Of a stretch of DNA of 64,000 nt, positions 35,776-39,450 are shown piece after piece. Origin of the DNA: Escherichia coli (GTDB taxonomy: Bacteria; Pseudomonadota; Gammaproteobacteria; Enterobacterales; Enterobacteriaceae); assembly GCF_003334385.1 (NCBI RefSeq), contig NZ_QOWN01000005.1; one strand, 5' to 3'. The notes beneath the pieces are model-generated. The model saw only the letters and a program-made list of their open reading frames with translations. It was not told where the DNA came from and made no database searches. How positions within the stretch are numbered: the stretch's first letter is position 1; each line of letters opens with the position of its first letter. The translations under genes were made by a program, and so were the position numbers.

Positions 35776-36713
35776 GCATTCGTCCTCTCTGCAATACGCA
35801 GAACTGAACTACGGGCACGAGGGTTCTCAGCCACCTCTTCTTCGCCCGGCATTAACTTGCCTAGTGCTCGCAGCTGACGGCCACCCAGTTTTTTGAGCTG
35901 CTCTTCAGTCATCGGTAACCCTGCCGGAACTTGCGGACCGCGGCTGTTTTCACGCATAAAACGTTTCACAATACGGTCTTCCAGCGAGTGGAAGCTGATG
36001 ATCGAAAGCCGCCCACCCGGGGCCAGCACGTTGAGCGAGCTTTTTAGCGCCTGCTCTATCTCCTCCAGTTCACTGTTTACCCAAATGCGCACCGCCTGGA
36101 AGGTACGGGTCGCGGGATGTTTAAACTTATCTTTCACCGGCGTTGCAGCAGCCACGACTTCCGCCAGTTCTTTGGTGCGGGTCATCGGCTGTTCGCGGTT
36201 ACGCTCGACAATGGCGCGGGCAATGCGTTTGGCAAAACGCTCTTCACCATAGGTTTTCAATACCCAGGCGATATCGGCTTCTTCTGCGGTTTGTAGCCAT
36301 TCAGCGGCTGACTGCCCACGGGTTGGGTCCATACGCATGTCCAGCGGACCATCGCGCATAAAGGAAAAGCCACGTTCAGCATCATCAAGTTGCGGTGAAG
36401 AGACGCCAAGATCGAGGAGAATGCCGTCGATCTTGCCGATAAGATCGCGCTCGGCAACGTATTCGCCCAGCGCGGAGAAAGGTCCGTGGATGATGGAGAA
36501 GCGCGGATCATCAATAGTCTTCGCAACGGCGATAGCCTGCGGGTCGCGATCGATCGCCAGCAAACGCCCCTCTTCGCCAAGCTGCGAGAGGATCAGACGT
36601 GAGTGACCACCGCGACCAAAAGTCCCATCAATGTAGATGCCATCAGGACGGATATTGAGGCCATTAACGGCTTCATCCAGCAGCACCGTAGTATGTTTAT
36701 AGTTTTCCATCAT
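35772..36713 (-). CDS. rsmH: 16S rRNA m4C1402 methyltransferase RsmH (MraW)
   Basis: Track ORF trimmed to the tandem ATGs at 36708-36713 giving [19 protein letters not shown]... (313 aa). Confidence 0.94.
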
Positions 36714-36714
36714 T

Positions 36715-37173
36715 TTATAGAGACAAGTCCTGCAGTCGCTCCGATAAGTCTCCGGTAGCCAACTGCTCTGCGTCGATATCTTCCTTGACCTGTTGATGCC
36801 AGGTTGTTTCATCCCACAGCTCAAACTTGTTGAACTGTCCAACCAGCATCACTTCTTTTGTCAGCCCGGCATGTTGCCGCAGTACTGGCGCGATTAACAA
36901 TCGACCTGCGCCATCCATCTGACATTCGCTGGCATGACCTAACAGTAGGCGCTGCACACGGCGCTCAACCGGGTTCATGCTCGACAGACGCGATAATTTT
37001 TGCTCGATAATTTCCCATTCAGGCAGGGGGTAAAGCAGCAGGCACGGGTGATAAATGTCAATGGTGCAAACCATTTGACCGGCAGCGTTCTCAAGCAGCT
37101 GTTCCCGATAACGGGTAGGCACTGATAAGCGCCCTTTGCTGTCGAGATTGACTAACGTTGCTCCCCGGAACAT
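36715..37173 (-). CDS. mraZ: Transcriptional regulator MraZ
   Basis: Track ORF trimmed to [26 protein letters not shown]... (152 aa). Confidence 0.94.
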
Positions 37174-37192
37174 GCCAGCCTCACCCCTTATT

Positions 37193-37217
37193 CCCACTTT
37201 GCCCCACAATTTCCCAC
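37193..37217 (-). promoter_or_regulatory. MraZ operator: three direct repeats GTGGG (minus-strand sense) spaced 10 bp apart in the mraZ leader
   Basis: CCCAC at 37193-37197, 37203-37207 and 37213-37217 on the plus strand; consistent with the MraZ binding repeats described for the dcw promoter. Confidence 0.55.
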
Positions 37218-37225
37218 TGAAAGGA

Positions 37226-37254
37226 GTTTACGGAGCTGAGGAAAAGCTTGTCAA
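37226..37254 (-). promoter_or_regulatory. Pmra sigma70 promoter of the dcw cluster (-35 TTGACA, 17-bp spacer, -10 GTAAAC)
   Basis: Perfect TTGACA on the minus strand at 37249-37254 with a -10-like hexamer at 37226-37231. Confidence 0.5.
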
Positions 37255-37729
37255 GCCAGTCACAAGGCATACCGAGGTAAAAAACCCGATGTTTACGGCT
37301 AATATCAGCGTTGTTTATTTTACGTCCAACGCGCGAAGCAAATTAACGTTATGAATAGCTGTAAGAAAAAATCCCTCATCGTCATCACCGTTTTAAAATG
37401 ACTCACTATTTTCCACAGCAAATATAAAGTGTCAGTTTGCGACGCGAGCGGCATTTTAGGACATATCTTCCCCGGTTAACAGTCCTTGTTACGTCTGTGT
37501 GGCGCTTGATGCCAGCGGGTTTGCGCAAAAGCAAAGAAAAGTGTTTGTTAAATCGGCAATTCATCGCCGCATGTAACAAAATAATGCAAAAACGCGCTGT
37601 CGATATCACTTAATTATTGTGAATTTCAGCTGGTGAGTTAATTAACGGGCGGGTTTAAAAGCATTTATCAATAATAGTCAGGAATAGTCTTATTTACTTT
37701 AAGCATATTGATGTCCAGTCCCGTACTCT

Positions 37730-37765
37730 ACGCGCCAGAGGGAAATTCACCTGGCGCGTATTTTT
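37730..37765 (+). terminator. Plus-strand intrinsic-terminator-like element (ACGCGCCAG - 12-nt loop - CTGGCGCGT followed by A TTTTT) 9 bp from the cra stop codon
   Basis: Seen in the sequence; the T-tract is on the plus strand, while cra is on the minus strand and no plus-strand CDS lies upstream. Confidence 0.4.
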
Positions 37766-37774
37766 GTTCGCGGC

Positions 37775-38779
37775 TTAGCTACGGCTGAGCACGCCGCGGC
37801 GATAGAGATTACGTTTAATGCGCGTTAAACCAGGTTTTGGCTTACGCGGTTCGTCCAGGCTTGCCAGGACAATCTCCAGCACACGCTCTGCGACATCGCG
37901 GTGACGTTGAGCCACTGCCAGCACCGGACACTGTAAGAAGTCGAGCAGTTCGTTATCGCCAAAGGTGGCAATTGCCAGGTCAGAAGGCAGTTTGCCGTCG
38001 CGACGCAGCGTGACATCCATCACTCCTTGCAACAACGCAAACGACGTTGTGAACAGCGCCTGCGGCATCGGATGCGTTTCCAGCCATTTTTCGAATAACT
38101 GGGCAGCCGCCTCCCGCTCATAGCTGTTGGCATACAGGAAATGCACTTCGCGCGGATCATCTTTCCAGGCAGTACGGAAACCTTGTTCACGCAGGAAGCT
38201 GACAGAAAGCTCCGGTAGCGCACCAAGATAAAGCACCGTCTCGGCGGGAAACTTACGTAACTCTTCCGCCAGCATTTCGGCATCATCCTGATCGGCACCA
38301 ACCACGCTGGTGAAGTGTTCACGATCGAGGGCGCGGTCCAGCGCGACAATCGGGAACGGGTCGTTAGCCCAGCGTTGATAAAAAGGATGCTCAGGAGGCA
38401 ACGACGTCGAAACAATAATGGCATCAACCTGACGCTGTAAAAGGTGCTCAATGCACCGCATTTCGTTGTCTGGCTGATCTTCTGAGCAGGCAATCAGCAG
38501 TTGATAACCCCGTTGCCGCGCTTGGCGTTCAAGATAGTTAGCGATGCGGGTATAGCTGGTGTTCTCCAGATCGGGGATCACAAGACCAATAGAACGTGTG
38601 CGTCCAGCACGAAGCCCAGCTGCCACGGCGTTCGGGTGGTAATTGTGCTCACGCACCACAGCCATGACTTTTTCAACGGTTTTGTCGCTCACACGGTATT
38701 GCTTCGCTTTGCCGTTAATAACATAGCTTGCAGTGGTCCGCGACACTCCCGCCAGCCGAGCGATTTCATCCAGTTTCAC
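37775..38779 (-). CDS. cra: Catabolite repressor/activator Cra (FruR), LacI family
   Basis: 334-aa reading with GTG start; begins [33 protein letters not shown]. Confidence 0.95.
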
Positions 38780-38958
38780 AATTGCCCCTTGCGTAAAATG
38801 TAAAAACCATAGCCATTGTACTGGTATGGGTTAAATTCATTAACATCTAAGCGCAGAAAATTAACTGCGGCAACTGCTTTTATTCCAGGTTCCCACTGAT
38901 TTCGCAAAAAAAGCCCAACGTGACATGTTGGGCTGTAAATTGCGCATTGAGATCATTC

Positions 38959-39450
38959 TCAACGCATTATTTTATCGCCGCGCGAAAGTCCGACCACACC
39001 AGAGCGAGCAACCTCCACAATTTTCGCCACATCGCGAATCGATGCTAAAAATGCATCAAGCTTACCGCTGGTGCCTGCTAATTGAACGGTATAAAGCGAG
39101 GGTGTGACATCGATAATTTGCCCACGGAATATTTCCGTATTACGTTTCACTTCGTCACGCCCGTAACCGCTGGCCTGAATTTTCACCAGCATGATTTCCC
39201 GCTCAACATGCGCGCCCTGCCCCAACTCACTCACGCGCAAGACATCGACCAGTTTGTGTAATTGCTTTTCGATCTGCTCAAGTACTTTTTCATCGCCCAC
39301 GGTCTGGATGGTCATACGCGATAATGTCGGATCGTCGGTTGGCGCAACGGTCAGGCTTTCAATGTTGTAGCCACGCTGGGAAAAAAGGCCAATCACGCGG
39401 GATAACGCGCCTGATTCATTTTCGAGTAAGACTGATAATATCCGGCGCAT
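38959..39450 (-). CDS. ilvH: Acetolactate synthase III small (regulatory) subunit
   Basis: Track ORF trimmed to [33 protein letters not shown]... (163 aa). Confidence 0.94.

Follow-up and report, generated by a model that had tools for sequence, protein, structure and literature searches.

A stem-loop lacking a U-tract immediately downstream from cra (fruR) in Escherichia coli, probably the 3′-terminal structure of the cra mRNA

Introduction

Bidirectional intrinsic terminators, as known from the SEnd-seq literature, are hairpins with an A-tract on one side and a U-tract on the other. An example is found between can and hpt (PMC6131387). A different kind of 3′ end was described for Rho-dependent transcripts of E. 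coli, which carry protective terminal stem-loops without a U-tract and are followed by sequences in which C exceeds G (Dar and Sorek 2018, PMC6061677).

Here, a hairpin located directly downstream from the cra (fruR) stop codon was analysed in a 64,000-nt stretch of E. coli DNA (hereafter the window, meaning the whole of this stretch). An earlier note, made from the sequence, had described this hairpin as terminator-like on the strand opposite to cra and had proposed that either cra relies on a hairpin-only end or an unannotated short plus-strand transcript terminates there. The first proposal is supported by a 3′ end mapped in K-12 and by comparative data pointing to the cra-sense RNA, and we estimate at about 0.7 the probability that the hairpin is the 3′-terminal stem-loop of the cra mRNA. 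As a U-tract is missing from the cra strand at this place, the release of the transcript is not expected to follow canonical intrinsic termination.

The hairpin and its position in the cra 3′ UTR

The cra CDS (37775..38779, from the ORF list and the RefSeq annotation) and mraZ (36715-37173, from the ORF list and annotation) are both located on the minus strand of the window, as are ftsI, ftsL, rsmH, the fruR leader peptide and ilvH/ilvI. They are separated by a spacer of 601 nts (37174-37774) for which the RefSeq E. coli records annotate no plus-strand gene. Since cra and mraZ are co-directional, the hairpin lies within the 3′ UTR of cra itself, 15 nts past the stop. Window positions (w) were converted into coordinates of K-12 (NC_000913.3) as 89032 + (37775 - w), and the conversion was checked on a promoter-like sequence, TTGACA-18-TAAACT at 37254-37225, which predicts a start at about 37218, i.e., 89,589, in agreement with the published Pmra starts at 89,588-89,590 (PMC6131387, PMC4782308). 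The region was matched in 5,424 of 5,426 complete genomes, and across these 5,424 E. coli genomes the hairpin is present at one place per genome; a REP/BIME-like repeat is ruled out by this single copy.

The stem-loop covers 37729..37760 on the minus strand, as defined by the sequence and by folds, and comprises a 10-bp stem and a 12-nt loop. On the plus strand, the arms ACGCGCCAG (37730-37738) and CTGGCGCGT (37751-37759) form a perfect 9-bp stem enclosing the loop (37739-37750), and T37729 and A37760 provide the tenth pair, with 7 G-C pairs among the 10. In the cra-sense RNA, the stem reaches 11 pairs by means of one G.U pair. The 9-bp stem is followed on the plus strand by A37760, then by TTTTT (37761-37765), a G and TT; read on the plus strand, the resulting T-run TTTTTGTT (37761..37768) is a U-tract that follows the hairpin, and read on the cra strand it is an A-tract that precedes it. 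The five Ts end 9 nts from the complement of the cra stop codon (37775-37777), so that the stem, loop, T-run and spacing are all as the earlier note had given them. The plus-strand tail TTTTTGTTC contains 7 T in 9 positions (T-score 4.30). Past the stem on the cra strand, the tail GAGUACGGG contains 1 U in 9 and no U-rich tract, again as had been noticed.

The 32-nt hairpin folds with -19.5 kcal/mol on the plus strand and -18.5 kcal/mol on the cra strand, the two being near-equal in K-12-like strains. In a plus-strand context of 61 nts, the fold has a z-score of -3.4, and 1 of 200 shuffled sequences was equally stable. In a custom scan of the 64-kb window, 9 stems were perfect over 9 bp or more and enclosed loops of 3-14 nts, compared with 2.9 +/- 1.8 in dinucleotide shuffles, and this hairpin is the only one of the 9 with at least 6 T in 9 flanking bases, a combination expected 0.03 times per window in the shuffles. 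A simple terminator scan omitted the hairpin because it allows loops of 3-8 nts only.

Both strands were also scored with a terminator discriminant (d-score) of the type of d'Aubenton-Carafa 1990. The plus strand scored +20.1 and the cra strand -57.4, while the canonical ilvH terminator of the same window scored +11.8, in line with the orientation initially perceived. Judged by its sequence, the element thus resembles a terminator in reverse orientation to cra. It does not have the make-up of a bidirectional intrinsic terminator, the hairpin being joined to a U-tract on the plus strand only. Such an arrangement could point to a dual use, in which the element would end or protect the cra mRNA and, in Escherichia, would also act as a reverse-facing intrinsic terminator against stray antisense transcription from the A+T-rich dcw spacer before this reaches cra. 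In favour of this proposal, the G+C-rich stem of 10 bp leads straight into UUUUUGUU and scores higher than the ilvH terminator, and the low chance expectation for a hairpin with such a T-run argues in the same direction, whereas the loop of 12 nts exceeds the usual length in terminators. Weighed together with the transcript and population data presented below, we regard a dual use as rather unlikely.

The 3′ end of the cra mRNA and transcriptional read-through

In K-12, SMRT-Cappable-seq reported a forward transcript of b0080 from a TSS at 87,968 to a TTS at 89,082, labelled 'novelTTS' (PMC6131387, Supplementary Data 1). This TTS corresponds exactly to window position 37725 on the minus strand, 4-5 nts beyond the base of the stem, where the earlier note had predicted a minus-strand end at about 37725. 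In this one PacBio dataset with modest read numbers, 94 reads were counted at the TSS, of which 20 ended at the TTS, 24 at most 50 bp beyond it and 6 further downstream, with a median 3′ extension of 119 bp for the cra transcript (PMC6131387). Hence 24 of the 50 reads reaching the TTS stop within the next 50 nts (window 37724-37675). Furthermore, a read-through unit starting at the same TSS as the cra transcript covers b0080, b0081, b0082 and b0083, i.e., cra-mraZ-rsmH-ftsL (PMC6131387). The hairpin fits a protective 3′ stem-loop, as it is stable, has no U-tract and is directly followed by the steady-state RNA end. That an RNA 3′ end was mapped at the base of the hairpin also speaks against a chance inverted repeat or an element acting at the DNA level, a reading taken up below.

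Counting against the assignment of the hairpin to the cra mRNA end, Term-seq, a thresholded method, yielded no 3′ end on either strand at 89,03x-89,09x in any table of PMC7815308, and in the table for LB at OD 0.4 both strands are empty from 83,641 to 89,783. TERMITe contains neither these coordinates nor these gene names. A literature search on the cra/fruR-mraZ (yabB) junction returned no papers, and the locus is not mentioned in the O157 small-gene paper.

Downstream from the hairpin on the cra strand, C exceeds G about 2:1. The A+T-rich stretch at 37629..37708 (minus strand), with 21-22% C compared with 10-11% G, is a candidate Rho-loading region; many cra reads end in its first part. For the K-12 plus strand, supplementary file 2 of PMC7815308, in which 800-nt windows were compared, contains no region of Rho termination between 79,798 and 107,527, which also weighs against the preferred reading. 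It should be considered that Pmra lies 500 nts downstream and that its transcription would mask an effect of Rho in a comparison of 800-nt windows. A further point of the same kind is that an A-tract upstream of the stem is atypical of Rho-dependent termini (PMC6061677).

Recurrence of hairpins past the cra stop in Enterobacteriaceae

Comparison of 80 orthologous Enterobacteriaceae cra loci showed a cra-strand stem-loop past the cra stop in all 80, mostly starting within about 16 nts. At least 20 of these loci have at least 5 T in the 9 nts after the stem on the cra strand. A AAAGGCAGC...GCUGCCUUUUUU hairpin with a U-tract is found in Kosakonia, Atlantibacter and Franconibacter, and textbook terminators of the form AAAGGCAGC...GCTGCCTTTTTT occur in these three genera as well as in Phytobacter and Cedecea. 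The hairpin lacks a U-tract in Escherichia, in most Citrobacter, in Salmonella and in Klebsiella. A-rich sequence preceding the stem, corresponding to a T-run on the other strand, was found in Escherichia and at one other locus (L071), and the rarity of a comparably A-rich tract among the other genera is a point against a reverse-facing terminator.

Within the first 60 nts past the cra stop, at least six unrelated hairpin families, with or without a U-tract, can be distinguished (loci L002-L081). The terminator has been swapped repeatedly among genera at a fixed position after cra. It could be imagined that in Escherichia the canonical cra terminator of many genera was replaced by a reverse-facing one, the stem-loop only capping the cra mRNA, and that the U-tract would either end an unannotated plus-strand RNA or insulate cra from antisense transcription originating in the highly conserved dcw spacer; we view this scenario as speculative and improbable.

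Because hairpins with unrelated sequences recur past the cra stop across genera, structure seems to be favoured over sequence at this position. The strand under selection was addressed with a helix search that is symmetric for the two strands, G.T and A.C both being allowed inside Watson-Crick stems. Among 76 distinct hairpins, 56 positions were G.T (a wobble in the cra sense) and 12 were A.C; G.T outnumbered A.C at 35 loci and the reverse was true at 5, the loci being related and the counts therefore not independent. Since a G.T on the cra strand is a G.U pair in the cra mRNA and a C.A mismatch in a plus-strand RNA, this asymmetry argues for selection on the cra-sense RNA.

These observations also bear on the possibility that the element is a chance inverted repeat or acts at the DNA level, for example as a REP-like sequence or a protein-binding palindrome, with no role as RNA. 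The covariation found in Escherichia and Citrobacter is statistically weak, which is compatible with this idea. On the other hand, neither the recurrence of hairpins with unrelated sequences past the cra stop nor a wobble bias restricted to one strand is expected of a DNA-level element, and together with the mapped RNA 3′ end they leave this explanation with a very small probability.

Variation of the hairpin in Escherichia and Citrobacter

In the homologous hairpins of Escherichia and Citrobacter, three pairs differ at both partners, for instance by a C-G to U-A exchange in E. whittamii. Where only one partner has changed within the conserved stem core (pairs 12-33 and 14-31), the exchanges are C-G to U.G and A-U to G.U, all of them wobbles on the cra-sense RNA only. 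Paired cells amount to 87.5% in these alignments, compared with 31-53% when the partners are slid, and the covariation itself is weak, its observed score being reached by 48 of 500 shuffles. In E. albertii, the hairpin folds with -18.9 kcal/mol on the cra strand versus -9.9 on the plus strand, where the stem contains a C.A mismatch, an asymmetry that is unfavourable to a plus-strand terminator.

Within E. coli, the identity of a 62-nt region to the window is at least 99% in 1,398 genomes, 95-99% in 2,697 and 90-95% in 1,329. All 18 bases of the stem are invariant among seven haplotypes sampled from E. coli, and the variation is found in the loop, at the closing T37729 and in the T-run. The B2-type allele combines T37729A with a change of ATTTTT to ACTTTT, giving the tail ACTTTTGTTC and a plus-strand d-score of -41; its exact 62-nt haplotype is carried by 438 genomes, among them that of the type strain ATCC 11775. 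The loss of terminator character in these 438 genomes, alongside about 1,330 genomes in the most divergent class, argues against a function of the plus-strand T-run as a reverse-facing terminator. Nevertheless, each of the four Escherichia lineages (E. coli, the cryptic clade, E. albertii and E. whittamii) has preserved a run of 4-5 T amid diverging neighbours, and the run may therefore not be neutral. This retention speaks for a dual use, and, with the near-equal folding of the two strands in K-12-like strains, it is also a point against the hairpin serving solely as the cra mRNA end.

A natural insertion was encountered at locus L088 (E. coli 23CRST031), in which an IS1A is located beside the hairpin base on the spacer side, at the equivalent of window position ~37727. 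In this strain, cra is cut off from the spacer and the hairpin and T-run are intact.

Search for a plus-strand transcript

The second proposal of the earlier note was that a short unannotated plus-strand RNA, either an sRNA or an antisense RNA, would originate in the spacer and end at the hairpin and its U-tract. The geometry of the hairpin and U-tract on the plus strand is favourable to this view. A scan of the spacer for sigma-70-like promoters on the plus strand found none at a threshold of 9/12, and relaxing the threshold yielded three weak promoter-like matches at 8/12 (~37328, ~37379 and ~37589). A search of Rfam 15 over 36500-39200 on both strands, with E-values up to 10, matched neither the hairpin nor the spacer; the matches obtained were at chance level, namely osmY RNA where mraZ has its 5′ end (36771-36838, E = 0.18) and, over the ilvH terminator, a toxic-sRNA model. 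In the SMRT-Cappable-seq data, there is no reverse-strand end at 8903x-8906x (PMC6131387), from libraries that excluded RNAs shorter than 1 kb, so that they could not have revealed a short RNA.

With no RefSeq gene, no Rfam family, no Term-seq 3′ end and only the three weak promoter-like matches, the proposed transcript has found no backing. It is further weakened by the T-run, which is polymorphic within E. coli along with the closing pair and has decayed in much of the population. In addition, the plus-strand sequence upstream of the hairpin overlaps the promoter of the minus-strand TSS at 89,143, which explains its conservation without a plus-strand RNA. We therefore consider it very unlikely that such an RNA ends here. 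The lack of a plus-strand promoter at 9/12 in the spacer and of a plus-strand 3′ end in PMC7815308 likewise disfavours a terminator acting against antisense transcription.

A plus-strand ORF at 37437..37613 (58 aa, TTG start) was considered as a missing gene and set aside; it ends 115 nts before the hairpin and overlaps unbroken conserved runs, which look regulatory rather than coding.

Conserved blocks and transcription starts in the cra-mraZ spacer

The mraZ-proximal ~450 nts of the spacer (37174-37700, minus strand) contain near-invariant blocks across 11 Enterobacteriaceae, including an invariant run of 39 nts, CTAAAATGCCGCTCGCGTCGCAAACTGACACTTTATATT, at ~37459-37421, and the further blocks TTTGTATTATTTTGTTACATGC (~37590-37567) and TATTCATAACGTTAATTTGC. 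Since the conservation occurs in unbroken runs and does not spare every third base, it looks regulatory rather than coding.

Cappable-seq starts on the K-12 plus strand were reported at 87,969, which is that of the cra promoter, and at 89,143, 89,237, 89,360 and 89,590 (PMC4782308). Those at 89,143, 89,237 and 89,360 correspond to window positions 37664, 37570 and 37447 and are thus located within the spacer on the mraZ strand, where they adjoin conserved elements, including the -10 sequences TATTAT (37676-37671) and TAAAAT (37458-37453). Because of these starts, mraZ would have leaders of 270-490 nts, which are absent from the RefSeq annotation. A promoter-tiling preprint describes two distinct promoters at mraZ. 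In Rhodobacter, a long dcw leader is reported to contain the sRNA UpsM (PMC5089854).

Directly downstream from the variable hairpin, a block TTAAGATTATTCCTTA-N-AATTATC (window ~37677-37695) is kept in nearly all genera, roughly 50-120 nts past the cra stop in loci L006-L081. In many genera, the TTAAGATTATTCCTTA block is an imperfect inverted repeat, AGATTATTC-N4-GAATTATCT, of which the E. coli copy is degenerate. The sequence of this repeat suggests a putative transcription-factor site overlapping the promoter of the 89,143 start. It was also observed that in L082 (NZ_CP016828.1) and L083 (NZ_CP019250.1) two locus tags are skipped between mraZ and cra, e.g., from RS22985 to RS23000, which suggests that spacer features were present in earlier annotations and were later withdrawn.

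A model for the end of the cra mRNA

If the hairpin is the 3′-terminal stem-loop of the cra mRNA, the most likely course would be as follows. RNA polymerase moving along the minus strand would pass the cra stop at 37775 and, 15 nts later, transcribe the stem-loop (37760 to 37729). Part of the polymerases would then halt at the hairpin or within about 50 nts past it, in the A+T-rich sequence where C exceeds G. Such halting may involve Rho, or alternatively a roadblock at the next promoter, that of the 89,143 start, whose -10 element TATTAT (37676-37671) is located at the far end of the zone in which the reads stop. The RNAs released in this way would be trimmed by 3′-to-5′ exonucleases back to the hairpin, which would protect the mRNA and leave the steady-state end 4-5 nts beyond the stem, at 37725. 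The other polymerases would continue into mraZ. The T-run on the plus strand, a feature of Escherichia, would serve at most as a secondary backstop against antisense transcription.

Together with the mapped end, this assignment gives cra a defined 3′ end, which already stands in a published table as 'novelTTS' without being discussed there. It also shows that the boundary between cra and the essential mraZ-dcw cell-division operon is leaky, and the leak could couple the expression of a carbon-flux regulator to the transcription entering the division cluster. Beyond cra, the locus provides a clear example of how terminators are exchanged at one and the same place in different Enterobacteriaceae, and of how the asymmetry between G.U and A.C can reveal on which of its two strands a hairpin is selected. 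These findings are of little practical value, and a 3′-end hairpin without a U-tract, being a known kind of element, will not surprise a specialist.

Comparison with known systems

Among described elements, bidirectional terminators have in common with the cra hairpin that a single hairpin serves both strands and that an A-tract is present at one side. The cra hairpin differs from them in that the tract is single-sided, so that by its sequence only the plus direction would terminate, and no convergent transcript is known. Canonical intrinsic terminators resemble it on the plus strand, where a G+C-rich stem leads directly into UUUUUGUU with a positive discriminant, and at the orthologous positions of many genera, which carry a cra-strand hairpin followed by a U-tract. 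In E. coli, however, the U-tract is on the strand without a known transcript, and the loop exceeds the 3-8 nts that are usual.

The Rho-dependent transcripts with protective stem-loops (PMC6061677) differ from cra in some respects, since cra has an A-tract upstream of the stem and a 12-nt loop, and since Rho action and trimming at cra are steps that we infer. Similar to this class, cra has a stable stem-loop without a U-tract just past the gene, with a 3′ end a few nts beyond it, C in excess of G downstream, diffuse 3′ ends and read-through.
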